Assembly (NCBI RefSeq): GCF_035084215.1 | Contig: NC_090340.1 | Coordinates: 4,216,001 to 4,280,000, forward strand | Direction: 5' to 3' | Source of the DNA: Heptranchias perlo | Taxonomy: Eukaryota | Length of the DNA stretch: 64,000 nucleotides | Shown here: positions 3,148 to 34,205 of the stretch, one piece after another | Layout of the letters: every line of letters starts with the position of its first letter | Numbering within the stretch: the stretch's first letter is position 1 | Made by a program: the position numbers and the translations under genes | The notes under the pieces: generated by a model | Database searches by the model: none | The model's input: the letters and a program-made list of their open reading frames with translations, nothing else | Told to the model about the DNA's origin: nothing

Positions 3148-5169
3148 CCACTAATATAGTTTGCTGCATGCGACCTGGAACTGGACCTGGGGGAACCTGA
3201 CCGCAGGAAGCCCGTTATTCTCTAAGGTTACAACAGTTCCCAATCCCCGGTGTGACCTTCAGCAACTGATTCAGTCTTCGGCTGCTCCCACTGACTGCAA
3301 TGGTGCTGCTCCAGGATACACACAGTGTCTGTTTGTGTAACAACTTCCTCTTATAACTGTTAGTCGTGTAAACCCAACATTCTAGAACATCTCATAGAAG
3401 CTGCCATTTTTCAGTGAGCCCAAGATCTGTTTTGGGAGAGTCTATACTGTTAACTTCAACATCATGTTTTTCATTTACTGTTACTAGTTACCTCAATGTT
3501 GTTGTTTAGGCAGAATCTCATTGCTTTCTGACATTCACTGACACTGCAGTACCTAACAATCAACCTCCTTAAGATCTGCACAGTAGGTGCTGGGTTGAGC
3601 CCAGGGATGACTCAATCCAGCCTGTGTGCATCCTATGGGACTGGGGTGGTCTGGAGGCATCTTCAAGGACAGCCCACTGTGCACTTCGCTCTGCAGCACC
3701 TCGAGCACACATCATGTCATCGCAGCTGACACTGTGATTGTTTTTTTTTTCCTATCCGAATGCTTCATCATTTAGTTCGTGAACAAACCATTCTAGATGT
3801 TGCATTGAGGTCACAGAGTAAACTCACTGCACCAAAGGAACCGGCTGAGGGAGTTTGTATTCTGCTGCAATTCTCACTGGTGCTTTAATGATTCCTTCAT
3901 TCTGTTTGTCTCCAATTTCTATATTAATTATCCTCCTGATCCTGAAGTGATAGGGGCTTCAATCATTACCATGAACTTTCCTGCTTTCTATCTGGTGTTC
4001 TATCACAGGCTGCTCTGGTACGAATCATCCGGCTCATCCCAAAAAGTACAACTTTTGTTCGGGGTTCAATAGAACAGATCTTGAAACAGCTGCTGCTGCA
4101 ATGGGCTCCTGACCTCGGCACCTCTTGTATTAAGCACGTTCAGCCTCTGCCCACCATCCTCAGGACTCGGCAGCAGGTCCTCCTGACACCAGAGCAAGAG
4201 ACTCTTTGACCTTACTTTTATTGTACAATTCTACATCCATCACTTCTGCGAGTGGATGTTCTTGGATTTTGGGTTCGTGCTGGGGCAAGTGTTATTTTAG
4301 CTATTTATCGAAACCAATAAATTTGGCCCTAATAAGATTCCCTGTAAGACTGCATCTGTCCTATGGTGCACATTATGTTAGAGTTTAAAAAACCACGCTA
4401 TAAAATTCTCTGCTGTCAGACAAGGAACCAAAGTAATGAGTGTGTATTGAATGGAACAGATGAGGAAAGTGACGGTCAAGGAAATAGTGAGACCAGCGCA
4501 TTGCTGCAGTGGAAAGGTAAACACTGAACTGGTCTCCACTAGTAACATGAGATGATGTTTTAGTGCATATGGGGTTGGTCCAAGCCCAGCTGCAGCACTA
4601 GTCTCCATAACACAGGGAGATTAATGTCCTCAAGAGTTTAATATGACAGCGCTGTGAAACAGGCTGGGATTTAATCACGTAACATTTCTATGGAGGAGGC
4701 AGTCAGTGACTTGATCCGTAAACGCTGCATTCATTCAAACAACGGGTTTAATTAGTCTGCTAAAGACATAAATGAAGACAGAACAGAGCACAGTGAATAT
4801 GGTAATACCACAATTGATACATTGGTTGGGGGTTTGCACGTGTCTGTCCCCGGACGATCGCAGGCCGCCGAGCGGACGCAAACCCCAAACATCCTGTGAT
4901 CTAACCCGTGAGCGCTGTAACTGTGATCTTTCTTACAGAGAATCCCTGGAGTTCTCAGTTAACACAGCTCTGGAACCCATCCTGGGAAACAATGAGTGAC
5001 AGGGTACCCAGGGACTAGAAACACCGTCCAGGGAACCGCTTGTGGTGGATTGAGTACTGGAGAGAGTCACTGTAGGAAAGGAACCGATTCTAAACATCCA
5101 AACACTGACATCCTTGGAGGAACCAACTGAAAGAATAATTCATGCAGGAGATTCCAGAACCTCCAATCT

Positions 5170-5574: not shown

Positions 5575-6459
5575 CTGAACACCGTAAAGAAAACAGTGAA
5601 TCCGTAAACACCCTGTGGGTTCTCAGGTACGACAAAAACCGAACACTGTGTCGGCACTAGCCTCAAACAAGCATCCCCTACCATTACTGATAACAGCAGC
5701 TCTCGGGGACTATCCAAGGGCTTTACTTACACCACAAATGTAGGCTCTGTGTGAAGCAGCAGTTATCGTGTAAATGAAACCTGAATCCAGAGTCAGGGCC
5801 CAGTTGACACTGAAACAATGCTGGCCGAGATTCCCCGGAAGAACAAGTCTCATTCGGCTTTGCTTCAAAGTCAACTTGAGCCTTAAAACCCAACTTGTAC
5901 TTCGCAAGCTTGACATCAGAGGGATGCTAAAACCGATTTGCACTGATGCCAACTTGCAGTGCAACTGCGCCCTTAATGAAAGGTCTGATTTTACACAATG
6001 ACTATCAAACTAGGGGTCGCTTTGAGCTGTGAGCTCACAGCACTGGAAACTACCCAAGCTCAGTTCAATATCAGTGAACGGAGATTCAGAACCCATCACA
6101 CTGGGCGGAATTTGGACTCAGGACCCAAAGGAGAAAAGCCAATTTTCAGAAATTCGCATGTTCCCAAAGACTCAAAGATGCATTCAACTTTCAACCGTCG
6201 CATTCAGCACAACGGAACTTCACTTTATTGTGCAGTTACATTGACTCGCAACACATTCATTGGGTGCACGGTTTCAATCGGGGCAATATTCTATTTTAGT
6301 TTAATCAAAATGATTCCCCAATCACAAACGTAAATATGCTTTGTGTGAAACCATTACAAGCAGCTTGCTGTTCCAGATACCCTTCCCCCAACATCACCTA
6401 TTCCATTACCGAACCGGATTAGAGTTGGTAAAATATAATAAAGAAGTCATCACGGATTC

Positions 6460-13229: not shown

Positions 13230-13728
13230 TAGGGGTTTACAGCACAGAAAGAGGCCATTCCGCCCATCATGTCTGTTTAGGCAGTTTGCTCGAGCAATCC
13301 AAAACTAATCTCACTGGCCTGCTCCATTCCCGTAGCCCTGTATCAATCCTAAACTAACCCCACTAACCCGCACCCTCCCTATAGCCCTGCATCAATCACA
13401 AACTAGTCCTACTGCCAAATTCTTTCCGCTTAGCCCTATATTGTTTCAAAATTAATTCCAATGAGATGCTCTCCCGATAGTCCTCCATCAACCCCAAGCT
13501 AATCCTAATGTTCCATCCTTTCCCCATAGTCCTGTATCAATCCAAAACTAATCACACTGCCCCCACTTTCCCCATAGCCATGTATCAATCCCATACTAAT
13601 GCTACTGCTCCGCTCTCACCCCTTAGCCTTGCCTTAATTGAAAAATAAGTCCACTGCCCTGCTCTCCCCTCATAAGCCCCTGTCAATCCAAAACTAATTC
13701 CACTGCCAGGCTCAATCCCCATAGCTCT
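13230..13728. repeat. Reverse CR1 3' end running into a 47-49-bp minisatellite (left half of array)
   Basis: Unit approximately 'tcaatcccaaactaatcccactgccccgctctccccatagccctgta'; about 9 degenerate copies after 'acagcacagaaagaggccattc'. Confidence 0.85.
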
Positions 13729-14414
13729 TGTCACAGAGTTCTACCAACTCGTAACCTTCTCCATACGACAAACGATAATCCTTGACCAATTCTTAATTCA
13801 AAACACTTGTCTTTTAATTCAATCAACAAAAACATCAGACTGCAATACCTTTGGCAACGCCTAGTACACTTCCCAGTCCACGGTACCTTTGGCAACGCCT
13901 ATTACGCTTTCCCAATCGCAGGCTTTTTCATCTGTCCGAAGCTGCCTTACAACTGCCCTCAACTGCCTTTTAGCTCATTAGCTTCTTTACAGGTCTCTGA
14001 GCTCAGGCCAGCCCCAGCTGCCTTCCAGCTTAATCTTTAGAGACTCTTTCCGCGACCGATGGGCACCGAAGGGACTGGAGTGCATGCTGGATTGTTATAA
14101 TAAAATTATTATTTGACACTTATATTGGGTTTATTGATTTACTGCACATAAACACACTCTAAAAAAAGAAAAAGAAAACTAGACGAACCTCAAAAAAAAT
14201 CTTTAGATACTCTGTTCAGGGGTGGACCCTTTACTTCTCTCCACATTTCCATTTATTCCCACCTGATTGTGAAGGTCTCCACCGACTCCAGCCTTTATTC
14301 TTACTTAAAGGTGAAGTTTCCTAAAAGTGCCGTACCCCTCCTCTTAAAGGGGAGGTCTCCTTAAAAGGGCCAAAGCCTTATTCAGCGATTAGGGTCATTT
14401 GTTACTCCGCTACA
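13729..14414 (-). repeat. 3' LTR
   Basis: Minus strand TGTAGC...GTGACA termini; collinear with 29045-29600; internal 38-bp 'tacctttggcaacgcc..' repeats. Confidence 0.85.
14048..14197 (+). mobile_element. 5'-truncated L1/Tx1-type LINE 3' end with A-rich tail
   Basis: Absent from the other LTR; flanked by 16-bp TSD aatctttagagactct (14032-14047) / aatctttagatactct (14198-14213); reads FRDRWAPKGLECML, like Tx1 ORF2 C-termini. Confidence 0.75.
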
Positions 14415-14434
14415 AATCCTCCCTCCCGCCCCTC
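14415..14434 (-). promoter_or_regulatory. Polypurine tract
   Basis: Minus strand 'gaggggcgggagggaggatt' immediately before the TG of the 3' LTR. Confidence 0.8.
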
Positions 14435-14898
14435 AGCATAGATCCATTGGCTCTGGTGGCCTGAATGCGAAGCAGTACGCTCTGGAGAGGGCATGGAGTA
14501 TTCTCCAGAGCCTTCCTGGCTCCATGCCCAATAATTGCCGTCTCAATCATTTCAACAAGTTCTAGCCGCTCATTTTCACATGCCGTATGGACAGTCCCTT
14601 TGGCTATTTCAAAGGCCTTTGACGCACCGTCCGAGTTTCCCGTCTTTCCTTTTCATGCAGAATCCAGCACAATTCCTTTCACAAGGGTCCTCACTCCGGA
14701 TTTTCCCAGTGGAAATTTCCTGCTCGTGTCTGTCGTCTTTATTTCTGGTGCAACCATCTGTTTGTGGAAGGACATGATCCCACCTGACGATAACCTCTTC
14801 TTTCCAGCCTTCTTCTCAGTAAAGGAGTATTCTTCATTTTGGCTCTTTCCAAGTTCAATTCATGTGGTCTCTTTTCCAATGCACTTTCGAAAGACTGC

Positions 14899-17800
14899 TG
14901 GCAGGGGTGGGGGGGGGGGCGGAGGGTCCCGGTGGAGAGAAATCTAGAACGCTCAAGAGAAAAAACAAAGAAGTAGTGCCGGAAAGTGATTGGGGTAACG
15001 ATAACCAGATTATGTCACGAAGGGACAGAGGTACAAACAAAAGAGTGCATTAACAAATAGGGTCCGGGTAAGAAAAAATGTAATAAGACAAATAGGGTCA
15101 TAGTACAAAAAACGTTAGGATGTCTAAAAATGTTATAAAAGACAAATCTAATGGCACTGTATCTGAATGCACGGAGCACTCATAGTAAGTTAGAAGAATT
15201 AACAGAGCAAATAGATGTAAACGGATATGATATAATTGCAATTACAGAGACATAGCTGCAGGGTGACCAAGACTGGAGCTGAATGTCCAAGGGTATTCGA
15301 TATTTAGGAAGGACAGGCAAAAAATGAAAAGAGGTGGGGTGGCGTTGTTGGTAAAGGATGAAATCAGAGCAATAGTGAGGAAGGATATTGGCTCAGAAAA
15401 TCAAGATGTAGAATCAGTCTGGGTGGAGGTAAGAAGCACTAAGGGACAGAAAACACTGGTGTGAGTTGTCTATAGGCCTCCAAACAGTAGTGATAGTGTA
15501 GGGGATGGCATCAAACAGGACATTAGAGATGCATGTAACAAGGGTACTACAGCAATCGTGAGTGACTTTGATCTACATGTAGAGTGGCCAAACCAAATCA
15601 GCAAAAATACTGTGGAGGATGAATTCCTGGAGTGTGTACGAGATGTTTTTTTAGACCAGTACGTTGAGGAGCCAACCAGGGAACAGGCTATCCTAGATTG
15701 GGTATTGTGCAATGAGAAAGGGTTAATTAATAATCTTGTTGTGCAGGGTCCTTTCGGGAAGAGTCACCAAAACACGATAGAATTCTTCATTAAGATGGAA
15801 AGTGAAGTAGTCCAATGCGAAACTTGGGTCCTAAATCTAAACAAAGGAAACTACGTAGGTATGAGGAGTGAGTTAGCTATGACAGATTGGAATGCTTCAT
15901 TAAAAGGCATGATGGTGGATAGGCAATGGCTAACGTTTAAGGAACGAATGCATGAATTGTAACAATTATACATTTCTTTCTGGCGCACAAACACAAAAGG
16001 AAAATGGGCCCAACCATTGTTAACAAAATGAATTAGGGGTTATATAAAGTTGCCAGAAAAAGTAGCAAGCCTGAGGATTGGGAGCAGTTGAGAATTCAGC
16101 AAAAAAGGACCAAGCGATTGATTAAGGGGTGAAAAATAGAGCATGAGAGTAAACTTGCAAGGAACATAAAAGTGGGTTGTAAAAGCTTCTACAACTATGT
16201 AAAAAGAAAAGAAAAAGATTAGTGAAGACCAATGTAGATCCCTTACAGTCAGAAACGGGAGAATTTATAATGGGGAACATGGAAATGGCAGAGCAATTAA
16301 ACAAATACTTTGGTTCTGTCTTCACAGAAGAGGACACAAATAACTTCCCAGAAATGCAAGGGAACCAAGGGACTAGTGAGAAGGAGGAATTGAAGGAAAT
16401 TAGTATTAGTAAAAAAATAGTGCTGGCGAAATTAATGGGACTGAAAGCCAATAAATCCCGAGGGCCTGAAAATCTGCATCCCAGAGTACTAAAAGAGGTA
16501 GCCATGGAAATAGTGGAGGCACTGGTTGTCATCTTCCAAAATTCTATAGATTATGGAACAGTTCCTACCGATTGGAGGATGGCAAATGTCAACCCACCTT
16601 TTAAAAATGGAGGGAGAGAGAAAACAGGGAACTACAGACCGCTTAGCCTAACATCAGTAGTAGGGAAAAATGCTGGAGTCTATTATAAAGGATGTGATAA
16701 CAGGACACTTAGAAAATATCAACGGGATTAGACAAAGTCAACATGGATTTATGAAAGGGAATTCATGTTTCACAAACCTACTGGAGTTTTTTGTGGATGT
16801 AACTGGTAGAATAGATATGGGAGAACCAATGGATGTGGTTTATTTGGATTTTCAGAAGGCCTTTGATAAAGTCCCACATAAGAGATTAGTGTGCAAAATT
16901 AAAACACATAGGATTGGTGGTAATATACTGGCATGGATTGAAAATTGGTTAACAGGCAGGAAACAGAGAGGAGGAATAAATGGGTCTTTTTCGGGGTGGC
17001 AGGCAGTGACTAGTGGGTTACCACAGGGATCAGTGCTTGGGCCCCAACTATTCACAATATATATCAATGATTTGGATGAGGGAACCAAATATAACATTTC
17101 CAAGTTCGCTGACGACACAAAACTAGGTGGGACCATGAGTTGTGAGGAAGATGCAATGAGGCTTCAATGCGATTTAGATAAGTTGAGTGAGTGGGCAAAT
17201 ACATGGCAGATGCAGTATAATGTGGATAAATGTGAAGTGATCCACCTTGGAAGGAAACACAGAAAAGCAGCGTATTATTTAAATGTTGATAGATTGGGAA
17301 ATGTTGATGTCCAAAGGGACCTGGGTGTCCTTGTACACCAGTCACTGAAAGCAAGAATGCAGATGCAGCAAGCAGTTAGGAAGGCAAATGGCATGTTGAA
17401 CTTCATTGCTCAAGAATTCGAGGAAAGGAGCAAGGATGTCTTACTGCAGTTATACAGGGCCTTGTTGAGGCCACACCTCGAGTATTGTGTGCAGTTTTTG
17501 TCTCCTTTTCTAAGAAAGGATATACTTGCCATCGAGGAAGTGCAGCGAAGGTTCACCAGACTGATTCCTGGGATGGCAGGAGGAGAGATTGGGTCGACTC
17601 GGCCTGTATTCACTAGAGTTGAGAAGAATGAGAGGGGACCTCATTGAAACATATAAAATTCTGACAGAGCTAGACAGACTGGTTGCAGGGACACAGTCTC
17701 AGGATGGGGGAATATTTAGGACTGAGCTGAGGAGAAATTTCTTCACTCAGAGGGTGATAAACCTGTGGAATTCTCTACCACATGAAGCTGTGGCGGCCAA

Positions 17801-17981
17801 GTCACTGAATATATTTAAGAAGGAGCTAGATAGATTTCTAGACACAGAAGGCATCAAGCTGTATGAGGAGAAAGCGGAAATATGATAGAGGATCAGCCAT
17901 GATCATATTGAATGACGGAACAGGCTCGAAGGGCTGAATGGCCTATTCATGCTCCTATTTTCTATGTTTCTATGTTTCTAT
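14899..17981 (+). mobile_element. 5'-truncated CR1 (near-complete decayed ORF2 plus 3'UTR)
   Basis: APE (YLNARS, AITET) and RT ORFs 16222-16731 and 16670-17647 (DFQKAFD, PQGSVLGP, FADD); tail (tctatgtt)n. Confidence 0.95.
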
Positions 17982-19125
17982 ATCCCACCATAAGCAGGCT
18001 CATCCAATGGAACCACCAAAGATATGCACATGGGCAGGAGTATCCAATTGCTTCCTGGTCTGGAGCAGACTTCTTTTTCTCTTTCCAGTGCTTAACAACC
18101 TCTTTTCCTGTTATATCTTTGGAGATTTTTTCCAACCTTTCCCCATGTATCCCTTTAACATCGTGGTCTGTAGATGTGGAACTCTCGACTGCACACACTG
18201 CACTCGATCCCATTAGATCATGAACAAACCCTAGTGGTAGCCTTGAATTTCTCAGAGATTGGAACTTGTTTCTCGGAGTTTCTCATTAACTGCCCCAGCT
18301 CCTGCTGCTGCTCCCCGGCCACACTTCGCAGGATGACCGTGAGCTGATGGTTTTCATCCTCCATTTTGAAGTAAAAACCCTTCACTCCACTTGATTCCTG
18401 CAGTTTGCGCCTGCCCATCAATTTGGTCCATCTGACCCTTCTGCGGGTATTTCCATTGCTCTTCGTTCCTCTTCCCCCAGAGGAATTCCTCTTCTCCTGG
18501 TCCTTACTTGACCTGTGGAGTGCTGATTTTACTTGGCACCCTTCAATTCACGATTTAATGGGGGCCCAATCCCCATGGTTTGCACTCTTGGGTCAACTAC
18601 TTCAACACCTATTCCCAAAGACTCTAATTTCTCTCCAAGAATTTCTTCGATTTGGTGTTTATCCAACCTTCCTTCAAACTGCTCCACTCTGGAACTCTGC
18701 AGCTTTTGCACATCAAGAGAAGAGCCGTTTTCACTGACCACAAGATGAATGTCTGACAAGCTACCAGCTGTAGTTTCTATGGCAGCCTCCGTAGTGGCAG
18801 CTGCAGTTTCTATCACCGATCCATGTACAATGCTTGCATTAGGCTTAACGGGTTGTACAACCTGAGATACAGCACTGAATTCTGGAATCCCTATCTCCAC
18901 AGGTAATACAAACTCTGCAATGAATTAAGAACATAAGAACATAAGAAATTGGAGCAGGAGTAGGCCAATCGGCCCCTCGAGCCTGCTCCGCCATTCAATA
19001 AGATCATGGCTGATCTGATCCCAACCACAAATCTAAAGAACACAAGAAGTCGGAGCAGGACCCGGCCACATAGCCCCTGGGCCCTCTCCGCCACCCACAG
19101 GGCATTGACCGATCCGAACTCAGCT

Positions 19126-21982
19126 TCATGTCCAATTTCCTGCCCGCTCCCCATAACCCCTAATTCCCTTTACTTCGAGGAAACTGTCTATTTCTGTTTT
19201 AAATTTATCTAATGATGTAGCTTCCACAGCTTCCTGGGGCAGCAAATTCCACAGACCTACCACCCTCTGAGTGAAGAAGTTTCTCCTCATCTCAGTTTTG
19301 AAAGAGCAGCCCCTTATTCTAAGATTATGCCCCCTAGTTCTAGTTTCACCCATCTTTGGGAACATCCTTACTGCATCCACCCGATCAAGACCCTTCACAA
19401 TCTTATATGTTTCAATAAGATCGCCTCTCATTCTTCTGAACTAATATGAGTAGAGTCCCAATCTACTCAACCTCTCCTCATATGTCCGCCCCCTCATCCC
19501 CGGGATTAACCGAGTGAACCTTCTTTGTACTGCCTCGAGAGCAAGTATGTATTTTCTTAAGTATGGAGACCAAAACTGTATGCAGTATTCCAGGTGCGGT
19601 CTCACCAATACCTTATATAACTGCAGCAATACTTCCTTGTTTTTATATTCTATCCCCCTAGCAATAAAAGCCAACATTCCGTTGGCTTTCTTGATCACCT
19701 GCTGCACCTGCATACCAACTTTTTGATTTTCTTGCACTAGGACCCCCAGATCCCTTTGTACTGCAGTACTTTCCAGTCTCTCGCCATTAAGAAAATAACT
19801 TGCTATCTGATTTTTCCTGCCAAAGTGCATAACCTCACATTTTCCAATATTATATTGCATCTGCCAAATCTCCGCCCACTCACCCAGCCTGTCTATATCC
19901 CCTTGCAGGTTTTTTATGTCCTCCTCACTCTCTACTTTCCCTCCCATCTTTGTATCATCTGCAAATTTTGATATGTTGCACTCGGTCCCCTCCTCCAAAT
20001 CGTTGATATAGATTGTAAAGAGTTGGGGACCCAGCACCGACCCCTGTGGAACACCACTGGTTACTGGTTGCCAGTCCGAAAATGAACCATTTATCCTAAC
20101 TCTCTGCTTCCTGTTCGATAACCAATCCTCCACCCATGCCAGAATATTACCCCCAATCCCGTGATTTTTTATCTTAAGTAATAATCTTTTATGTGGCACC
20201 TTGTCGAATGCCTTCTGGAAGTCGAAATACACGACGTCCACTGGTTCCCCTTTATCCACCCTATACGTTATATCCTCGAAGAACTCAAGCAAATTTGTCA
20301 GACATGACTTCCCCTTCATAAAGCCATGCTGACTTTGTCCTATTAAATTATGCTTATCTAAATGTTCCGTTACTGTCTCCTTAATAATAGACTCCAAAAT
20401 TTTACCCACCACAGATGTTAAGCTAACTGGCCTATAATTTCCAGCCTTCTGCCTACTACCCTTTTTAAATAACGGTGTTACATTAGCAGTTTTCCAATCT
20501 GCCGGGACCTCTCCTGAGTCCAGGGAATTTTGGAAAACTATCACCAAAGCATCCACAATCCCTACTGCCACTTCCCTCAAGACCCTAGGATGGAAGCCAT
20601 CAGGTCCAGGGGATTTATCCGCCTTGAGTCCCATTATTTTACTGAGTACCATCTCTTGAGTGATTTTAATCGTATTTAGCTCCTCCCCCCCGAGAGTCCC
20701 CTGTTTGTCCAGTGTTGGGATATTCTTAGTGTCCTCTACTGTAAAGACTGAAACAAAATATTTGTTCAGCATTTTTGCCATCTCCATGTTTCCCACCATT
20801 AATTTCCTGGTCTCATCCTCTAAGGGACCTATGTTTGCCTTAGCCACCCTTTTTCTTTTTATATAACTATAGAAACTCTTGCTATCTGTTTTTATATTTT
20901 TTGCTAATTTCTTTTCATAATCTAACTTCCCTTTCTTAATCAATCCTTTAGTTACTTTTTGCTGCCTTTTGAAGAATTCCCAATCTTCTATCCTCCCACT
21001 AAGTTTGGCTACCTTATATGTCCTTGTTTTTAGTCGGATACTATCCTTGATTTCTTTACTTAGCCACGGGTGGCTGTCATTTCTTTTACACCCTTTTTTC
21101 CTCAGTGGAATATATTTATTTTGAAAGTTGTAAAATAACTCCCTAAATGAACACCACTGCTCATGTACCGTCTTACCCTTTAATCTATTTTCCCAGTCCA
21201 CTTTAATCAATTCCGCTCTCATACCATCATAGTCTCCTTTATTCAAGCTCAGTACGCTTGTTTGAGAATCAACCTTCTCACCCTCTAATTGGATATGGAA
21301 TTCAACCATGTTTTGGTCGCTCGTTCCAAGGGGATCCTTAACTAGGACATTATTAATTAATCCTGACTCATTACACAGGACCAGGTCCAAGGTTGCCTGC
21401 CCCCTTGTAGGATCAGTTACATACTGCTCAAGAAATCCATCCCTGATGCACTCAATGAACTCGTCCTCAAGGCTGCTCTGCCCAATGTGATTTGTCCAGT
21501 TAATATCATAATTAAAATCCCCCATAATTATGGCTGTTCCCTTATTACATGCCCCGACTATCTCCTGATTAATACTTCTTCCAGCAGAGTTGCAACTATT
21601 AGGAGGCCTATATACTACGCCCACTAATGTTTTTTTTTTCCCTTATTATTCCTTATCTCCACCCAAACTGTTTCATTATCTTGATGCTTTGTCCCAATAT
21701 CATTTCTCTGTATTACAGTGATTCCTTCCTTTATTAACATAGCCACCCACCTCCCCTTCCTTCCTGCCTGTCCTTCCTGATTGTTAAATACCCTGGCATA
21801 TTTAATTCCCAGTCGTTGTCACCCTGCAGCCATGTTTCTGTAATGGCCACAAGATCATACCCATACGTAGTTATTTGTGCCGTTAACTCGTCCATTTTAT
21901 TACGAATGCTACGTGCATTCAGATAAAGAACTTTCAAATCTGTTTTGTGACGCTTAGTTCCTGCTTTTTCCTTTTTTAACAC
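19126..21982 (-). pseudogene. CR1 ORF2 (AP endonuclease + reverse transcriptase), frameshifted
   Basis: Pieces 21734-21982 (YLNARSIRNK, AITETW), 19441-21624 (727 aa; GDFN, SDQ, YRPVSLTS, GVPQGS, FADD) and 19126-19431; shifts near 21745, 21635 and 19445. Confidence 0.95.
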
Positions 21983-22065
21983 TTTACCTATTACTCCATA
22001 CCTTCTGTCCCTTCCTGTTACGCTTTCCTCTCTCTCCCTGCTCAGGTTCCCAACCCCCTGCCACT

Positions 22066-23016
22066 TTAGTTTAAACCCTCCCCAACAGCACTAGCAAACA
22101 CTCCTCCTAGGACAGCGGTCCCGGCCCTGCCCAGGTGCAGACCGTCCGGTTTGTACTGGTCCCACCTCCCCCAGAACCGTTTCCAGTGTCCCAGGAATTT
22201 GAATCCCTCCCCCTTGCACCATTCCTCTAGCCACGTATTCATTTGAAATATCCTCCTATTTCTACTCTGACTAGCACGTGGCACTGGCAGCAATCCTGAG
22301 ATTACTACCTTTGAGGTCCTATTTTTTAATTTACCTCCTAACTCCCTATATTCTGCTTTTAGGACCTCATCCCCTTTTTTACCTATATCGTTGGTGCCTA
22401 TGTGCACCACGACAGCTGGCTGTTCGCCCTCCCCCTCCAAAATGTTCTGTAGCCGCTCCGAGACATCCTTGATCCTTGCACCAGAGAGGCAACACACCAT
22501 CCTGGAGTCTCGGTTGCGGCCGCAGAAACGCCTGTCTATTCCCCTTACAATTGAGTCCCCTATCACTATAGCTCTGCCACTCTTTTTCCTCCCAGCCTGT
22601 GCAGCAGAGCTACCCGTGGTGCCAGGAAGTTGGCTGCTGCTGCCTTCCCCTGATAAGTCATCCCCCCCAACAGCATCCAAAGTGGCATATCTGTTTGAGA
22701 GGGGGATGGACACAGGGGACCCCTGCACTACCTGCCTGCATCTCTTACTCTTCCTGGTGGTCACCCATTCACTTCCTGCCTGTATACCCTTTACCTGCGG
22801 TGTGACCAACTCGCTAAACGTGCTATCCACGAGTTTCTCTGCATCGCGGATGCTCCACAGTGAGTCCACCCGCAGCTCCAGCTCCGAGATACGATCGGTC
22901 AGTAGCTGCAGGTGGACACACTTCCCGCACACATGGTCGGCAGGGACACTGGTCGTGTCCATGACTTCCCACATCTTGCAGGAGGAGCATATCACGGGTG
23001 CGAGGTCTGCTGCCAT
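22066..23016 (-). CDS. CR1 ORF1 protein (Cys-rich zinc finger/leucine zipper + SGNH esterase-like domain)
   Basis: Intact 316 aa: CSSC...CGKC, heptad LLTDRISELELRVDSL, GDSIVRG, HIGTND, DGLH. Confidence 0.92.
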   Translation of the reverse strand: MAADLAPVICSSCKMWEVMDTTSVPADHVCGKCVHLQLLTDRISELELRVDSLWSIRDAEKLVDSTFSELVTPQVKGIQAGSEWVTTRKSKRCRQVVQGSPVSIPLSNRYATLDAVGGDDLSGEGSSSQLPGTTGSSAAQAGRKKSGRAIVIGDSIVRGIDRRFCGRNRDSRMVCCLSGARIKDVSERLQNILEGEGEQPAVVVHIGTNDIGKKGDEVLKAEYRELGGKLKNRTSKVVISGLLPVPRASQSRNRRIFQMNTWLEEWCKGEGFKFLGHWKRFWGRWDQYKPDGLHLGRAGTAVLGGVFASAVGEGLN

Positions 23017-23285
23017 GACTTGCCTTAGCTGAGTTACCCCTTTTAAATTACTTTGAAATTAGAAAATGTTAACTATACTAGGGACCTAGGTTCACTAAAA
23101 AAAAACACTATCTGCTATAAAACCTGCAGATCTTCCCTTTCTTATTACTTTACTTACAGTAAAATGGTAGAAATACTCACCTGAACCTACTCACCAATCA
23201 GCTGCCTCCCCTGTGCCGCGTTACTTTCTGACTGGTGACGTCACCCCGAACTGCTGCTGGTCTCAGAGTCTCGCTCTCAGAGTAA

Positions 23286-23680
23286 GCTCTGGTCTCACTC
23301 TCTCCGCGCTGTGTATATCCCCGCTCTGGTCTCACTCTCTCCCGCCGCTCACCGACTGAACTCTCACTCTCTCCGCGCTGTTTATATCCCCGCTCTGGTC
23401 TCACTCTCTCCGCGCTGTGTATATCCCCGCTCTGGTCTCGCTCTCTCCGCGCTGTGTATATCCCCGCTCTGGTCTCACTCTCTCCGCGCTGTTTATATCC
23501 CCGCTCTGGTCTCGCTCTCTCCGCGCTGTTTATATCTCCGCTCTGGTCTCGCTCTCTCCGCGCTGTTTATATCTCCGCTCTGGTCTCGCTCTCTCCGCGC
23601 TGTTTATATCTCCGCTCTGGTCTCGCTCTCTCCGCGCTGTTTATATCTCCGCTCTGGTCTCGCTCTCTCCCGCCGCTCAC
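23286..23680 (-). repeat. 37-bp tandem monomers in CR1 5'UTR
   Basis: About 10 copies of 'cggagatataaacagcgcggagagagcgagaccagag' (element sense). Confidence 0.9.
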
Positions 23681-23854
23681 CTCTCTCAGGTCCACTACCG
23701 CTCTGCAAGAAAAGCAAGGCAAAGCAGCACCTCCTTCCCCCACTTCACCTAACTCCCACACGTACCGAACTCTCAGCACACTGTGTAATATCCGCACACC
23801 GTGCAGTCCGCACTGACAGGCCCCTGTATTTCTACAGTTGAGACTCAGATTAAT

Positions 23855-26800
23855 GGAGAATATAAATTCAGTTAATTAAAATAAAATCTGGAATGAAAAG
23901 CTAGTATCAGTAATGGTGACCATGAAACTACCGGATTGTTGTAAAAACCCATCTGGTTCCCTAATGTTCTTTATTGAAGGAAACCTGCCGTCCTTGCCCA
24001 GTCTGGCCTATATGTGACACCAGTCACACAGCAAAGTGATTTTATTCTTAACTGCCTTCTGAAATGGCCTAGCAAGCTACACTGTTGTACACCCCTGCTA
24101 CAGATAGACATAATAAGAATAAACCAAACGGAACATCTTGCATCGGACCACTAAGCACCGGACAGGTAAAGGGCAAACCAAGCCCAGTCGTCACTGCAAT
24201 ATCCTCCTCATTAACATCTGGGGACTTGCGCCAAAATTGGGAGAGCTGTCCCACAAAATAGTCAAGTAACAGCCTGACGTAGCCATACTCACAGAACCAT
24301 AACTTTCAGCCAAAGTCCCAGACTCCTCCATCACCATCGCTGGGTATGTCCTCACGCAGCGGCAGGACAGACCCACCAGAGGAGGTGACACAGTGGTATA
24401 CAGTCAGGAGGGAGTGGTCCTGAGAGTCCACAGCATGGAGTCAGTACCCCATGAAGTCTCAAGGCATCAGGTCAAACATGGGCTAGGAAACCTCGTGCAC
24501 ATCACCACCGACCAACCTCCCTCAGCTGATGAATCAGTCCTCTTCCATGTTGAGCACCACTTGGAGAAAGCACTGTGGGTAACAAGGGCACAGAATGTAT
24601 TCTAGGTGGGGGAATTCAATATCCATCACCAAGAGTGGCTCGGCAGCACTGCCACTGACCGAGCTATCAGAGTCCTGAAGGACGTAACTGCCAGACTGGG
24701 CCTACGGCAGGTGGTGAGAGAAACAACATGAGGGAAAAACCTACTTGACCTCGTCCTCAACAATCTACCTGTCGCATATGCATTATTCCATGATATTATT
24801 GGTAGGATAGACCAACGTACAGTCCTTGTAGAGACGAAGTCCCGTCTTCACACTGAGGACACAATCCATCGTGTTGTGTGGCACGACGACCGTGCTGAAT
24901 GGGATAGATTAAAAACGGATTTAGCAGCTCAAAACTGGTCATTCTTGTTGCCCATCAGAAGCAGCAAAATCGTATTCCACCACAATCTTTAACCTCATGG
25001 TAGGGCATATACCACACTCTACCATTACCAGTAAGCCAGGGGATCCACACTCGTTCAATGAGCAGTGCAGACGAGCATGCCAGGAGCAGCACCAGGCAAA
25101 CCAAAGAATGAGATACCAACCTGGTGAAACTACAACACAGGACTACATGCATGCTAAACAGCAGAAGCAGCATGCTGGAGACAGAGCTAAGCGATCCCAC
25201 AATCAATGCATCAGATCAAAGCTCTGTAGTCCTGCCACATCCAGTCGTGAATAGTAGTTGACAATTAAGCAACGAATGGGAGGAGGAGGCTAGTGAGTAT
25301 GCCCATCCTCAATAATGGCAGATCTCAGCATATGAATGCAAAAGGCAAGCCTGAAGCGTTTGCAACCTCTTCAGAAAAAAGTGCCAAGTGGATGATCCAT
25401 CTTGGCCTCCTCCCGAGATCCCCACCATCACAGAATCCAGTCTTCAGCCAATTCGATTAATTCCACGTGATATCAAGAAACGGCTGAGTGCACAGGACAC
25501 AGCAAAGGCTATGGGCCCCAGAAACATCCCGGCTGTAGTGCTGAAGACTTGTGCTCCAGAATTAGCCGCACCTTTAGCCAAGCTGTTCCAGTACAGCTAC
25601 AACATTGGCATCTACCCAACAAAGTGTAAAACTGCCCAAGTATGTCCTGTCCACAAAAAGCAGGGCAAATCCAATCCGACCAATTACCGTCCCATTAGTC
25701 TACTCTCAATCATCAACAAAGTGAAGGAATGTCTCGTCGACAGTGCTATCAAGCGGCACCGAATCACCAATAACCTGCTCACCGATGCTCGTTTGGGTTC
25801 CGCCAGGACCACTCAGTTCCAGACCTCATTACAGCTTTGCCCCAAACATGGACAAAAGAGCTGAATTTCAGAGGTGAAGTGAGAGTTTCTTCCCTTGACA
25901 TCAAGGCAGCATTTGACTGAGTGTGGTATCAAGGAACCCAGTAAAATTGAAGTCAATAGGTATCAGGGGGAAAACTCTCCATTGGCTGGAGTGATACCTA
26001 GCACGAATGAAAATGGTAGTGTTTGTTGGAAGCCAATCATCTCAACCTCAGCACATTGATGCAGGAGTTCCTCAGGGCAGTGTCCTAGGCCCAACCATCT
26101 TCAGATGCTTCATCGATGAACTGCCCTTCAACCTAAGGTCAGAAATGGGGATGTTTGCTGATGATTGCACAACGTGCAGTTCCATTCGCAACCCCTCAGA
26201 TAATGAAGCAGTCTGTGCCTGCAAGCAGCAAGGCCTGGACGACATTCAGGTTTGGACAGATTTGTGAAGCAAATGTTATTTGGCACTTAAGTGTCAGACA
26301 AAGACCATCTTCAATAAGACAGAGTCTAACCACCTCCCCATGACATTCAGCATCATTACCATCGCCGATTCGCCCACCATCAACATCCTTGGGATTACCA
26401 TTGACCAGAAACTTAACTGGACCAGTATAGTGGCTAGAAGAGCAGGTCAGAGGCTGAGTATTCTGTGGCGAGTGACTCACCTCTTGACTCCCAAAGCCTT
26501 TCCACCATCTACAAGGCACAAATCAGGAATGTGATGGAACACTCTCCAATTGCCTGGATGAGTGCAGCTCCAACAATACTCAAGAAGCTCAGCACCATCC
26601 AGGATAAAGCTTAATTGACACCCCATCAACCACTTAAACATTCACTCACTCCACCACCGGTGCACCATCAACATGATGTACTGCAGCAACTCGTCAAGGC
26701 TTCTTCGTGAGCACCTCCCAAACCCACGACCTCTACCATCTAGAAGGACAAGGGCAGTAGGCACATGGGAATAACACGACTTGCACGTTCCCTTCTAAGT

Positions 26801-27021
26801 CACACAGCATCCTGACTTGGAAATATATCGCCGTTCCTTCATCGTCGCTGTGTCAAAATCCTGGAACTCCCTTCCTAACAGCACTGTGGGGGAACCTTCA
26901 CCACACGGACTGCAGCGGGTCAAGAAGGGTGCTCACCACCACCTTCTCAAGGGCAATTAGGGACGGGCACTGAATGTTGACCTTGCCAGCGATGCCCACA
27001 TCCCACGAATGAATAAAAAAA
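23855..27021 (+). mobile_element. Near full-length single-ORF APE-RT LINE (CR1 group, Zenon-like), decayed
   Basis: APE start NIWGLAPKLGEL..PDVAILTE at about 24212; [31 protein letters not shown]; tail gaatgaataaaaaaa; no ORF1 seen; clade label tentative. Confidence 0.85.
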
Positions 27022-27186
27022 TGCTCTTCCAACCCATCGTTGTCATTTCCCTCTGAACCTCTCTTTGTCGAGCACCCTCCTCATAAAGCCTCTTTCCCTC
27101 TATTGATCGCTTGCTCTATTTTTTCCAGCCATCCAATAGTCCCCTGCCGGGAAGTAAATTGCGTGGAGGATCTAATTATTTCGAGG

Positions 27187-27964
27187 ACTCTGCTCGAGAC
27201 CAACCGCCTTGTTCCTTTCCTCTTCCAAGTTGCCTTTTATCTTCTTGACCATTGTCAGTGCGTCAGAAAAAACACTCTGCCGTTTTGCAGATCTTTCCAC
27301 TTGTTCATCGTTGGATTGCCTCCTTTGACCTTCAGTCATCTCTTACTTGTATTGAAGAGTTATAACCGAATCAACCTGGGTTTCACAGATGATTGCAGGC
27401 TTTGGTTTTGAGAGGTCAGCACGGCAACCTTGGTGTCCAACTCTTGCACCTTCTATGCCAGCTCGTTCCTCTCTTGCTCATCTGATTGCTTTCCAAAGTC
27501 TTAATCTGTTTAGTGAGCATTTCTAGTTCAGCTTCCATCTCAACCTTCAGTGTCTCATACTGCCTACCTACAGAAGCCTTCTCATTGCACATCGGGTCCG
27601 TCTTTTCCTTCAGCGTGGACACTTGCTGCAACTTGCTCTCTCTTTCGGCTTCCAGTTCTCTCTCAAAACTAAGCACTGCGTCCTCTATAATCCTCAGGGC
27701 TTCCTCGAGGGTCTCCCTCTTCAAGCGTTGATCGAGGGCAACTTGCTAGGCCGCCCTCTCTTTACTTTGCGAGTCTTCCACCAGCTCATGCCTCACTCTT
27801 TTTCCCTCCAGATCCACGTTGAATGCGTTGACCTGTCCAGTCAGCCTTTCCTCCTCAATCTACGCAGCTTGCTCGAGCAGCTCCTTCTGGTCAACCGTCT
27901 CGTTGACTGACTGCTGGAGGCTGGCGATGGTTGTGGTTAGCTGGCTTTTCTCTTCCATGTGAAG
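27187..27964 (-). pseudogene. NUMA1: Intronless NuMA-like coiled-coil fragments captured in LTR element
   Basis: HMEEKSQLTTTIASLQQSVNETVDQKELLEQAA*IEEERLTGQV resembles recalled human NuMA HFEEEKQQLSSLITDLQSSISNLSQAKEELEQASQAHGARLTAQV; also SFERELEAERES ~ SLERSLEAERAS and KKIKGNLEEERNKA ~ KVTKGSLEEEKRRA. Confidence 0.7.
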
Positions 27965-28434
27965 TCCTTTCATGGCCTGCAGGTTGACCTCCAGGCAGAG
28001 CTCAGTTTCTTCGATGCCCTGCCGCTTGTTGGCCCGCTCCTCCAACTGGTCCTCATCTCTGCCGTGTGCTGCTCCAGCGCTCTCTTCACCTTCTCCAGCT
28101 CGTGCACGCTCTTGCCCACAACGTCCATGGCACTCATCACGTCCTCCCTCTTGGTCCGATGCTGCTTGTGGAGGCGGTCGAGCTCCTCATGTTTCTCGCA
28201 GACCTTTCTAACCAGCACTTATCCCTTCTCACTATTCGCCAATTGAGCCTGCAGGGACACCAACTGCTGCTTCTCTTTCAGCCTCTTCTCCTTCTCCTCC
28301 TGGAGCAGTGACTGGGCGTCCTTTAAGTGGGACTCCAGACTCGACACTACCTTGGCCAGCTTGATGGCTTTGGACTCGGCCCTCCTCAGAGCTCCGGTGG
28401 TTTCTTCCAGCTCAGCCTGCAATTTGAGGACCCG
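27965..28434 (-). pseudogene. Intronless non-muscle/smooth myosin II rod fragments (MYH9/10/11/14 type) captured in LTR element
   Basis: KLQAELEETTGALRRAESKAIKLAKVVSSLESHLKDAQSLLQEE and [39 protein letters not shown] match the myosin II tail motifs [28 protein letters not shown] and LEVNLQAMK. Confidence 0.88.
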
Positions 28435-28694
28435 ATGCATCCCATTTTCCTCCTGACTTACCACATAAGCACATGTCACTGATCTCCCCCTCATCCTGGA
28501 AAAAAGCCTTCTACAGGACTGTTTTGATAAGAATGGACTTCCTATACCTTTCTCTGAGACACTTTCTGGACTTCTCCATCTCTTCAGAATGGGCGCAGGT
28601 TTGTTGAAAAATTCCTGTATTCTCCTTCAGCAGCTCACTCCAAAGACTTCCGCTACAGTACCCTCTGTGAATGTGTAATTGTACTTATCTTCAA

Positions 28695-28904
28695 CTTAAT
28701 GTTGGCCAGCATCATTTCTTTACAGATTTCCCAGAACAGAAAGTGATTGGCAAAAGAACCAAAGGTGACATGAGGAAAAAACCTTTTTACACAGCAAGTG
28801 GTTAGGATCTGGAATGCACTGCCCGAAGGGGTGATGGGTGCAATATCTTGCTTATCGTACACAGCACGTTGCTTCCTGTCGCTCAGCAACGCCTGTCCTT
28901 TACC
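28695..28904 (-). pseudogene. DNAJC9: DNAJC9-like J-domain end fragment, split by a small CR1 piece (28735-28838)
   Basis: GKGQALLSDRKQRAVYDKQ vs recalled DNAJC9 GKVYSVLSDREQRAVYDEQ; after the CR1 piece, WEICKEMMLANIK ~ WRLLFKKISLEDIQ. Confidence 0.6.
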
Positions 28905-29024
28905 AGGACTCTTGCTGGGCGTCACGGATCAGGAACCAATTGGTCCTCTCTTGAGCGCACAACAATTCTTCGAGTGTTTCCTCCATACTGGGTTGGTGTC
29001 TTTCTTTTCTCTCTTAGAGACACG

Positions 29025-29042
29025 TTCCCACTTCTGACAACA
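29025..29042 (-). promoter_or_regulatory. Primer-binding site complementary to tRNA-Leu 3' end
   Basis: tgttgtcagaagtgggaa matches TGGTGTCAGAAGTGGGAT at 16/18, 2 nt after the LTR terminal CA. Confidence 0.85.
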
Positions 29043-29044
29043 TA

Positions 29045-29600
29045 TGTCACAGAGTCCTATCATCTTGTAACCTTCTTCAGATGACAAACGATAGACCTTT
29101 ACTAATTCGTAATACAAAACAATTGCCTTTTGATTCATTCCACACACAGTCACACTACGGTAACTTTGGCAACGCCCATTACACTTTAACACTCCACCGT
29201 ACTCTTGGCAACGTCCAGTACAATTTCCCACTCCATGGTACCTTTGGTAACGCCTAATACACTTTCCCAGTCCATGGTACCTTTAGCAATAGACTTTCCC
29301 AGGCCCAGGCTCTTTCAGTTGTCCGCAGCAGCCTTGAAACTGCTCTCAACTGCCTTTCTATTCATCAGCTTCTATCCAGGTCTCAGAGCCCAGGCAGCTC
29401 TAGCTACCTTCGGGCATCCTCTTCAGGGGCTCTGTTTAGGGGTGGCCCCTCTACTTCTGCCTCTCGACCTCTCCATTTTACTCTCACCTGACTGTGAAAC
29501 GTCTCCACCCACTCCAGCATTAATTGCTTCTTAAAAGTGATGTCTCTTTAAAGGGCCATACACTTATTCGGGGATCAGGGCCCTCAGTTGCACTGATACT
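29045..29600 (-). repeat. 5' LTR
   Basis: Collinear with 13729-14414; PBS directly adjacent; about 4 copies of the internal 38-bp repeat. Confidence 0.85.
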
Positions 29601-30853
29601 CCCTGTATCGATTCAACACTAATTTCACTGCTCTGGTCACTACCCATAGCCTTAATCAATCCCAAATGAATCTCACTGCCATATTCTACCCCCTTCGCCC
29701 TGTATCAATCCCAAATTAATCCCACTGTCCCGGTCTCTCCCCATAATCCTGCACCAATCCCAAAATAGCTGCACAGCCCCATTCTCTCTCCATAATCATG
29801 TACCAATCGCAAACTAATGCCACTGCCACGCTCTGTCCCTTTGGCCCTGTATCAAACCAAAACTAATGTCACGGCAATACGCATTCCCGATCGTCATACT
29901 TCAATCCCAAACCAATCCCGCAGCCCTGCACGCTCCCCTTAGCCCCGTATCAATCCAAAACTAATACCGCTACCCCGCTCTAACCGTAGCCCTATATCAA
30001 TCCCAAACCAATCCCACTGCCCCACTCCATCCCATAGCCCCGCATCAAACACGCTAAGCACACTGGCCCCGTTCCCTCCCCGTCGCCCAATATCAATCCC
30101 AAACGAAAACCAGGGTCCCATTCTACACCATAGCCCTGCGTCAATCTCAAACTAATCCTGCTGTCCCATCGATCTACTTCAATCCCAAATGAATCCCACA
30201 GCCCCGCGCCCTCTCCGAAGCCTGCATCAATCCAAAACTAATCCCAATGCCCCTCTCTCCCCACAAAGCCCTGTTTCAATCAAAAACTAATTCCACTGCC
30301 CCCTCTCTCCCCTGTTGCCATCTACCAATCCCATGTTAACGCCACTGCCCCGATCTCCCCCCAATGCACTCTATTAATCGAAAACTAATCGCCTTGCCCG
30401 GCTATCCCCCTGTATCGATTCAAAAGTAATCTCACTGTCCCGGTTTGTCCCCATAGTCTTGAATCAATCCCAACTTAATCCAATTGCCCTGTTCTCTCCC
30501 CGTAGGCCTGCATCAATCCCAAACTAATCCCAATAACCCGCTCTCTGTCCATAGTCTTGTTCCAATACCGAACTGATGCCACTTCCCCGCTATCTCTCCA
30601 CAGCTCTACATCAACCCAAAATGAATTCCACTAACCCACCCTCTCCCCATAGCCCTGAATCAATTCCAAACTAATACCACTGCCCCGCTCTCCCCATAGC
30701 CCTGTATCAATCTCAATCTATTCTCCTGCCACGCTCTCTCTCAATAGCCCTGTATCAATCCCAAACTAATCCCATTACCCCGCTGTTTCGCAAAGGCCTA
30801 TATCAATCTTAAACTTATCCCAGGTCCAGCTATTACCCCAGAGCCCTGAATCA
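29601..30853. repeat. 47-49-bp minisatellite (right half of array, about 25 degenerate copies)
   Basis: Same unit and orientation as 13290-13728. Confidence 0.9.
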
Positions 30854-30975
30854 AGGTGCATTTATATAGCACTTTTAACGTAGTAAGAAATCCGAAGGCT
30901 CTTCACATTAGCTTTATCAGACAAAATTTGACACCGAGCCAAATGAAGAGATATTAGGACAGGTAACTAAAAGCG

Positions 30976-31290
30976 CTGGGAATGTTTGATGGGGCAGTAT
31001 AGAGGAAGCTTTACTCTATAGCTAACACATGCTGTACCTGTCCTGCGAGTATTTAGTAGGACACTGCAGATGGAGCTTTACTTTGGATCCAACCTGTGCT
31101 GTACCTTCCCTGGGAGTGTTTGATGAGACGGTGTAGATGGAGGTTTACACTATTTCTAAACTATGCTGTAGTTATCCTGGATGTGTTTAATTTGATTGTG
31201 TAAATGGAGCTTTTCTCTGTATCTAACTCGTGCTGTAAGTGACGTGCTGTACGTAGGAATATTTGATGGGACAGTGTAGAGGGATCATTA
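30976..31290. repeat. 67-bp minisatellite
   Basis: Unit 'gggagtgtttgatgggacagtgtagagggagctttactctgtatctaacccgtgctgtacctgccct'; starts spaced 67 bp apart (30978, 31045, 31112). Confidence 0.85.
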
Positions 31291-33834: not shown

Positions 33835-34205
33835 CCCTGTATCTAACCAGTGCTGTGAGTGTTCGGCGGGACAATGTAGAGGAAACTTTACTCTGTATCC
33901 AATCCGTGCTCTACCTGCCCTGGGAGTGTTTGATGGGAGTGAGTAGAGGGCGATTTACTCCCTATGTAATCAGTGCTGTATCTATCCTGGGAGTACTTGT
34001 TGGGACAGTGTAGAGGGAGCTTTAATCTGTATCTAATTCGTGCGGTCCTGTGAATATTTGATGGGACAGTGTAGAGGAATATTTACTGTACATAAAACGT
34101 GATGTACCTGCTCTGGGAATATTTGATGGAAAAGCGTAGACAGAGATACGTTAGCATCCATCCTTGCTGTACTGGATTGGGAACGTTTAAAGCCGGTACT
34201 GGGAA
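33835..34205. repeat. 67-bp minisatellite, second block
   Basis: Same unit as 30976-31290. Confidence 0.85.

Follow-up and report, generated by a model that had tools for sequence, protein, structure and literature searches.

A pol-less LTR retroelement family of the shark Heptranchias perlo with an interior made of fragments of at least six host genes

The element and its insertion site

The window analysed here is the whole of a 64,000-nucleotide stretch of the Heptranchias perlo genome (assembly GCF_035084215.1, contig NC_090340.1, positions 4,216,001 to 4,280,000 of the forward strand). Its positions 13729 to 29600 hold, on the minus strand, a decayed copy of a pol-less, non-autonomous, multi-copy long terminal repeat (LTR) family, the interior of which carries fragments of at least six host donors: DNAJC9, myosin II, NuMA, AKAP12, PRKRIP1 and RALBP1. 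An initial annotation of this stretch had proposed a chimera of at least three host mRNAs; the three that it named (DNAJC9, myosin II and NuMA) stand, and the three donors in the 3' half had been missed. In the following list of features, strands are in brackets, and LINE stands for long interspersed nuclear element, ORF for open reading frame, PBS for primer binding site and RT for reverse transcriptase:

29045 to 29600 (-): 5' LTR with a 39-bp internal tandem repeat; 381 first-look candidates genome-wide
29025 to 29042 (-): PBS, tRNA-Leu(CAG), 16/18
28913 to 29024 (-): leader and about 15-20 Gag N-terminal codons (ATG at 28986), common to the Gmr1-like helper
28839 to 28912 (-): DNAJC9 exon-2 piece, 76% identical to the host over 72 nt
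28735 to 28838: inserted 104-bp repeat fragment, not found in dispersed copies
28675 to 28734 (-): end of DNAJC9 exon 2 and start of exon 3, 3.4-kb intron gone; above the shuffle maximum in 10/10 tested copies
28456 to 28674 (-): linker 1, no donor found; open in the frame of its neighbours
28243 to 28455 (-): myosin II rod piece 1, Myosin_tail_1 positions 427-497
27969 to 28188 (-): myosin II rod piece 2, spans a host exon junction, 1.5-kb intron gone
27329 to 27963 (-): NuMA coiled-coil piece A, 74% identical to the host
27022 to 27343 (-): NuMA pieces C, B and D, order shuffled
18927 to 27021: two later LINEs, one with an esterase ORF1 and an endonuclease-RT ORF2, the other a fragment of another family
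18527 to 18926 (-): AKAP12 pieces out of a giant exon, order shuffled
18365 to 18526 (-): linker 2, no donor found; common to sister family B
18141 to 18364 (-): PRKRIP1 (DUF1168) exons 1-3, two introns gone
17982 to 18133 (-): RALBP1 piece, first part
14899 to 17981 (+): later LINE (RT), on the strand opposite to the element
14877 to 14898 (-): RALBP1 piece, last part
14550 to 14885 (-): two more AKAP12 pieces
14415 to 14549 (-): 3' end of the helper pol region and polypurine tract
13729 to 14414 (-): 3' LTR with an AT-rich insert of about 170 nt

The two LTRs (556 nt and 686 nt) are collinear and 80% identical over 317 aligned columns; the 5' LTR has lost its terminal TG. The PBS matches the complement of the host tRNA-Leu(CAG) gene (3' end plus CCA) at 16 of 18 positions, and at all 18 in several other copies, and a purine tract (14432-14417) adjoins the 3' LTR. 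The insertion site is a 49-bp minisatellite array, in which three of four flanking positions fit a 4-bp target site duplication (TSD); exact 4-bp TSDs are present in L080, L100 and L109, half of the six copies for which both outer ends were located. All these marks had been read correctly in the initial annotation. The 3' motif of tRNA-Leu(CAG) has 291 exact matches in the genome, many clustered on unplaced contigs (C360, C457, C1286, C1317), and a tRNA gene was called in only one of three fetched loci with this motif. Arrays of 49-bp and 67-bp minisatellites occupy window positions 13284-13752, 29601-30854, 30969-31290 and 33846-34150.

After subtraction of the later insertions, the interior is 3,348 nt long by coordinates; the uninterrupted copy L080 has 3,934 nt. 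As proposed, it is devoid of pol motifs: no match to RT, RNase H, integrase or capsid families was found in the 12 stop-free segments of the window, three of which were rescanned. The predicted Gag-like start at 28986 is present, about 60 nt inside the interior, and the element retains about 15-20 Gag codons and no capsid. Later insertions are four in number. Of the three intervals that had been taken for nested LINEs, 18927-27021 holds two LINEs and 28735-28838 is a repeat fragment. One LINE (19444-23670, minus strand) is near-complete, with an esterase-type ORF1 of 330 codons and an ORF2 piece of 733 codons; its 5' end carries a 37-bp tandem array. Coiled coil makes up just about half of the cargo.

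Donors of the cargo

DNAJC9 has a single host locus that matches the cargo at 71-80%; in all ten copies tested the cargo runs from exon 2 directly into exon 3, above the shuffle maxima. PARP1, a weak match of the leader-DNAJC9 frame (E 0.013), was dropped once the host DNAJC9 exons matched at the DNA level. Myosin II is represented by two separate rod pieces, at Pfam positions 427-497 and 648-700, with myosin-9 as the best PDB match. Three host myosin II genes, of the non-muscle or smooth-muscle type, match at 63-83% and none is a clear donor; the donor may be a fourth paralogue that is absent from the assembly or was lost (genes compared: L073, L074, L075/L076). Contig C777 was considered as a myosin donor and does not match the cargo.

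The NuMA part matches a large host exon at 74-80% over about 700 nt and continues with three shorter, shuffled pieces. A record named Heptranchias perlo NuMA matches the protein encoded by this host exon at 100% identity. A 49-residue frame of copy L022 had no PDB match, and NuMA was identified by other means. The identities of DNAJC9, myosin II and NuMA are specific and not generic coiled-coil matches; what the initial annotation took for single myosin and NuMA segments are in each case several shuffled pieces.

At least seven scrambled pieces derive from a host frame of 2,200 codons with three WSK motifs, which we take to be AKAP12 from the motif and the size; an exact look-up of the host exon gave no identification. 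One captured piece (window 18770-18820, minus strand; host L097 near 6150-6200) contains an amphipathic stretch with no Pfam match, which presumably resembles a PKA-anchoring helix. The next donor is the host DUF1168 gene, presumably PRKRIP1, of which exons 1-3 were captured and both introns are absent. The RALBP1 piece matches a host exon at 75-83%; its match to RalA-binding protein in PDB is weak (E 0.08).

Cargo pieces cross one host intron in DNAJC9, one in myosin II and two in PRKRIP1, which indicates that capture was from spliced mRNA, as the proposal of serial mRNA capture requires; the NuMA, AKAP12 and RALBP1 pieces sit in single exons and carry no information on splicing. Every piece comes from inside a coding sequence and adjoins the next one directly, and none has an mRNA 3' end with poly(A) or a TSD of its own. 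For the two linkers (about 220 nt and 160 nt) no donor was found; linker 1 was sought in genome and library searches, and two candidate donors, C22 and C7, turned out to be copies of the element. Two natural copy segments gave no homologues in searches whose length limits excluded NuMA and AKAP12, which makes this negative uninformative.

Copies, sister families and variants

When one interior piece was searched against the genome, 40 scored candidates yielded 53 matches, which are spread over many contigs and mostly 72-81% identical. Other copies have the same layout of LTR, leader, interior and LTR with the same junctions and lack the LINEs. We fetched 167 non-host loci that match some piece and merged them into 123 distinct places, an enriched set in which all counts are lower bounds: two or more donors are present in 92 places, 67 of them with the LTR of the window, 64 places have both myosin and NuMA and 24 have all six donors. 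This confirms that the element belongs to a non-autonomous family. Two copies on the contig of the window itself (near 3.44 Mb and 5.06 Mb; L002/L090 and L003/L091) are 98% and 91% identical, share its LINEs and are segmental duplicates. A further partial match lies near 4.41 Mb on this contig (L144), and L077:1658-5800 is a tandem arrangement of LTR, interior, LTR, PBS, start of a second interior and LTR end, with a shared middle LTR.

The low identity and the unequal lengths of the two window LTRs could be read as independent solo LTRs next to ordinary processed pseudogenes, or as an assembly artefact. The dispersed copies refute this: the complete layout from LTR and PBS through cargo and polypurine tract to LTR recurs with its junctions on many contigs without the LINEs, TSDs flank whole elements, and the captured pieces are internal to their donors and shuffled. 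We regard this explanation as next to impossible.

The block AKAP12-linker-PRKRIP1-RALBP1 recurs with the same junctions in loci whose PBS is the same and whose Gag start is similar but whose LTR differs (L123, for example L123:1300-5200, L124, L126, L127, L129 and L130). The cargo of this sister family is closer to the host genes, mostly 82-94%, its RALBP1 piece extends further, and its 5' end consists of about 900 nt of acidic cargo with no assigned source. PRKRIP1 is missing from L134, which has AKAP12 and RALBP1, and the AKAP12-PRKRIP1 block is missing from L133 and L137, where the RALBP1 piece is longer. The loci with RALBP1 that lack PRKRIP1 or the AKAP12 block (L133, L134, L136 and L137) possibly represent earlier or parallel stages of assembly.

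Cargo content also differs between subfamilies: in 11 places (L177, L178, L182, L185, L186, L192, L194, L197, L198, L207 and L208) the element contains an additional exon of 340 nt. Its counterpart in the host, 73-86% identical, has a FYVE exon 41 kb downstream on its own strand; we assume that the host gene is EEA1. An Atlas search with this piece returned generic coiled coils only. Several of these variants have a shorter DNAJC9 piece, and they have other AKAP12 pieces. Where myosin and NuMA are both present, the EEA1-like exon is located between them, so that a later deletion, and not a capture, may have created the myosin-NuMA join of the window.

For genome annotation these data are a warning: dozens of myosin-, NuMA- and DUF1168-like matches in this genome (61 for DUF1168) are transposon cargo.

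A probable Gmr1-like helper

The likely counterpart of the autonomous Gypsy partner that the initial annotation had postulated is L086, where decayed gag and pol genes lie within the same LTR, PBS and leader as in the cargo element. What it has in common with the cargo element is restricted to the LTR and the two edges of the interior, 75-130 nt at its start and 110-190 nt at its end. Its domains are in the order Integrase_H2C2, rve_3, RVT_1, RT_RNaseH, with the integrase upstream of the RT and the RNase H extending to the 3' LTR, and this differs from the retroviral order of RT, RNase H and integrase. An integrase in front of the RT marks Gmr1 elements (PMC8220671). It is therefore likely, from domain order and shared sequences, that a Gmr1-like Gypsy element with the same LTR, PBS and interior ends served as helper. 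The helper gag has 51 matches in the genome from 40 scored candidates, and of 14 further gag loci, 11 have the LTR type of the window and 13 have the PBS. Three short gag fragments of the decayed L086, searched for a SCAN-like capsid, have no Pfam match.

The reading frame across junctions

The reading frame was scored copy by copy against the host codon phase in 65 copies. This set, like the stop, indel and constraint analyses, excludes L107, L131, L135 and L138 (other architecture) and L099 (a near-duplicate of L100), and it additionally lacks nine EEA1-bearing copies and two re-fetched loci; a smaller frame set retained L099. The in-frame state is the most frequent one at each of the 16 non-splice junctions (14 of 16 in the smaller set), clearly so at nine (for example 43/48, 36/41, 17/17 and 27/30), moderately at two and narrowly at five, in agreement with the long frame that had been proposed to run through the interior. 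As annotated, the window reads through the myosin-NuMA junction in frame, which holds for 43/48 copies; the Gag leader is in frame with the cargo, as suggested, in 12/25 copies versus 9 and 4 in the other two phases. Frame continuity was upheld in 11/12 steps through linker 1, and the words of 3-10 nt shared at the putative switch points are in frame at 9/11 junctions tested; sister-family junctions are in frame in 5/6, 3/4, 5/7 and 6/6 cases. By eye, the frame enters the helper pol tail and ends at a stop near the 3' LTR. Cargo frames have at most 346 codons in the first 20 copies and at most 249 codons in 40 more.

Stops and indels agree with this picture. None of 973 host-frame codons has a fixed stop in 36 copies, and six of seven stop-rich sites are mixtures caused by CpG decay. 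Singleton indels are mostly frameshifting (207, versus 59 in-frame, thus 59/266 are multiples of three); in contrast, all four indels present in at least half of the copies are multiples of three. On the element branch of the block shared with the sister family, about 3.5 fixed frameshifts are expected under neutrality and none was seen (rough P 0.03).

The frame might have been preserved without any selection. The captured pieces are rich in purines (62%) and in Glu (17.6%). If purine-rich, Glu- and Lys-rich sequences recombine at microhomologies, these will tend to be codon-phased: shared 5- to 10-mers between the Glu-rich donors are already in frame in 56-74% of cases, and the stem that precedes the burst of copies may have been too short to fix stops. 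In addition, 14/17 young Drosophila LTR retrocopies are in frame (Tan et al. 2016, PMC5131818), and the nonsynonymous to synonymous ratio (N:S) on the element branch is not significantly below neutral. As most donor microhomologies are in frame, the proper chance level for 16/16 is that of a microhomology null of 0.60-0.74, which is approximate only and yields 3e-4 to 8e-3; for the 11 clearer junctions hand arithmetic gives 0.004-0.04. The outcome is therefore still improbable without selection; moreover, the two linkers conceal further joins, and about 47 substitutions in 225 element-branch codons include no fixed frameshift or real stop. We consider an origin of the frame without selection unlikely.

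Constraint on the protein, age and transcription

Changes found in single copies are neutral (N:S 587:167, 54 stops). Alleles present in at least three copies have an N:S of 82:51 with one stop (p=1e-4; p=0.03 with transitions alone), but their carriers form no clades, the tree of copies is star-like, and the synonymous excess shrank when CpG sites and transitions were controlled for. A raw dN/dS between copies of 0.54 was not used, as it comes without a transition-aware baseline. On the branch exclusive to the element, obtained from the comparison of the window family with the sister family and the host over 225 codons, N:S is 30:15 (p=0.07). Near-fixed differences from the host are neutral-like in the acidic AKAP12 sequence (41:11), which makes up about 390 of the 973 codons. 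Overall, conservation is clearer for the frame than for the residues.

The initial annotation had suggested that the fusion protein itself was useful to the element, as a particle scaffold or through association with the cytoskeleton or the spindle. In a wider form of this idea, the Gag N-terminal helix, the myosin and NuMA coiled coils and AKAP12 would act as a co-assembling spacer, localisation factor or decoy. The NuMA part fits best: its near-fixed N:S is 20:29, its alleles shared by at least three copies are 31:29 versus 240:71 for singletons, and of its 33 near-fixed residue differences just 12 are assigned to the element branch (13 are assigned to the host branch and 8 are unpolarised). 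Coiled coils were also captured repeatedly, from myosin II, NuMA and the EEA1-like gene, and captured genes of crocodilian endogenous retroviruses (ERVs) are known to be under purifying selection (PMC4299795). However, the near-fixed counts mix change on the host branch with change on the element branch, and the excess of shared alleles is mostly recurrent transitions on a star-like tree (transition-only p=0.05 for NuMA and 0.03 overall). A protein role is further opposed by the loss of the capsid, the neutral-like AKAP12 part, the result for the element-only branch, the variation of cargo between subfamilies and the lack of a sense transcript with a long ORF (see below). The specific scaffold and spindle roles are thus not upheld, and we think it improbable that the protein aided the element in any of these ways. 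Still a little more doubtful is the most far-reaching version, in which a Gypsy lineage fused its Gag leader to at least seven host mRNAs, swapped blocks between families and was selected for a chimeric protein of about 1,250 codons with a NuMA core.

The family is old: terminal branches measure 0.05-0.15 substitutions per site, and the LTR pairs of six copies differ by 0.135-0.23. At 26 NuMA sites where the host differs from other sharks, the copies side with the host at 8, with the other sharks at 11 and are unclear at 7, which places the capture well back on the host lineage's own branch.

For transcription, three runs (X1, X2 and X3), which we guessed to be RNA, were used. One contig of 3,639 nt in X1, absent from X2 and X3, covers the broken variant copy L185:852-4490 with 12 differences, all of them T>C on the element strand and clustered at 3839-3949. 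This pattern led us to drop the idea of an LTR-driven sense transcript: the cluster probably reflects A-to-I editing, in which case the RNA is antisense to the element and provides no evidence for a fusion protein. In the three runs no sense RNA with a long ORF was detected, and no RNA record is listed for the window stretch. The window copy is dead, as annotated, and among the copies fetched and examined none is intact, transcribed and translated: the sole copy for which a transcript was found is broken and probably read in antisense.

Assembly of the element

The explanation that we prefer, and consider about evenly balanced between right and wrong, is that the element was built by serial template switching in particles of the Gmr1-like helper, and that its frame was kept open for the translatability of the RNA and not for a specific job of the protein. 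Template switching has been proposed for LTR-mediated retrocopies (PMC5131818). The helper RT would have jumped, at short shared words, onto co-packaged mRNAs and also onto RNAs of sibling elements, the latter transferring entire blocks of cargo from one LTR family to another, and helper proteins would have mobilised the element in trans. Products with early stops would have been lost, most plausibly via nonsense-mediated decay (NMD): an early stop leaves an untranslated tail of 3-4 kb, a potential NMD target, whereas the ORF of the element ends just before the 3' LTR. A long 3' untranslated region exposes retroviral RNA to NMD unless it is protected (PMC2925335). The amino acid sequence would be weakly constrained, perhaps more so in the NuMA part, and after one old burst all examined copies would have decayed neutrally.

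Several observations weigh against selection for translatability. Five junctions favour the in-frame state narrowly (7/6/3, 12/9/8, 17/15/5, 12/9/4 and 10/7/2); the margin is just as small at a true host splice junction (14/13/5), because of short-repeat slippage between the anchors. The EEA1-like junctions of the variant subfamily are mixed, with 3/5 and 4/9 in frame, and one L134 junction is out of frame. Changes on the host branch could account for the four shared in-frame indels, and the microhomology null is no better than an approximation. Some frameshifted variants recur in several copies: their carriers are mostly incongruent, which fits slippage hotspots, but frameshifted RNA may also have been transposed. 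The synonymous excess in NuMA is not needed by a model that acts purely at the RNA level. Finally, the NMD step is itself a proposal.

Comparison with known systems

Capture of genes by LTR elements is known, and the published animal cases that we found are single loci, few insertions or one captured gene. Neither this family nor cargo blocks shared between shark LTR families were described in the literature searched, which did not include most subscription journals, supplements and repeat databases. Defective transforming retroviruses have gag fused to two host genes and depend on a helper. The shark element is similar in its probable dependence on a helper and in a Gag leader that continues in phase into two or more captured genes; in contrast to transforming retroviruses, which are infectious and selected for oncogene activity, nothing in it points to env or to a signalling domain.

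While the initial annotation was right that this family appeared to be undescribed, elements of its kind are known from maize Bs1 and from the retrocopies of Tan et al. In Bs1, the interior of an LTR element likewise joins several unlinked host genes in one hybrid ORF with switch points common to the copies; Bs1 has three donors, one of them out of frame, exists in 1-5 copies and is reported to be transcribed and translated (PMC13317346, PMC5131818). The shark element differs by six donors (seven in the variant) in about 20 shuffled pieces, the use of the donors' own frames throughout, its presence with the window LTR in at least 67 places, a Gmr1-like Gypsy helper, and the death of all examined copies. 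The animal LTR retrocopies of Tan et al. (2016, PMC5131818) include multi-gene chimeras of up to four genes plus Alu, and resemble the shark element in that partial spliced mRNA replaces internal ORFs and secondary non-autonomous retroposition occurs; they have microsimilarity at the switches, to which the shared words of 3-10 nt in the shark element may correspond. Such secondary retroposition, with shared junctions, is found in the shark family too. The retrocopies are mostly young single loci or have few insertions, whereas the shark chimera is a family with cargo exchange and a frame over 16 junctions.

Crocodilian ERVs with KIT-ligand or nectin3 (PMC4299795) are, like the shark family, ancient multi-copy vertebrate LTR lineages with host mRNA in which selection on the cargo was tested; they carry single near-complete genes beside retained viral genes and show clear purifying selection on the cargo, as opposed to many fragments, no viral genes and weak constraint in the shark. 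Gmr1-like Gypsy elements (PMC8220671, PMC4592553) share with the helper L086 the integrase upstream of RT-RNase H, while the cargo element itself lacks pol and capsid. The shark system turns one question into a countable one: does selection keep cargo in frame in non-autonomous elements, and is its target the RNA or the protein? What is new in comparison with the known systems is a many-gene chimera that was amplified as a family, with related families that record stages of its assembly: RALBP1 alone, AKAP12 with RALBP1, the block with PRKRIP1, and forms with or without the EEA1-like exon.

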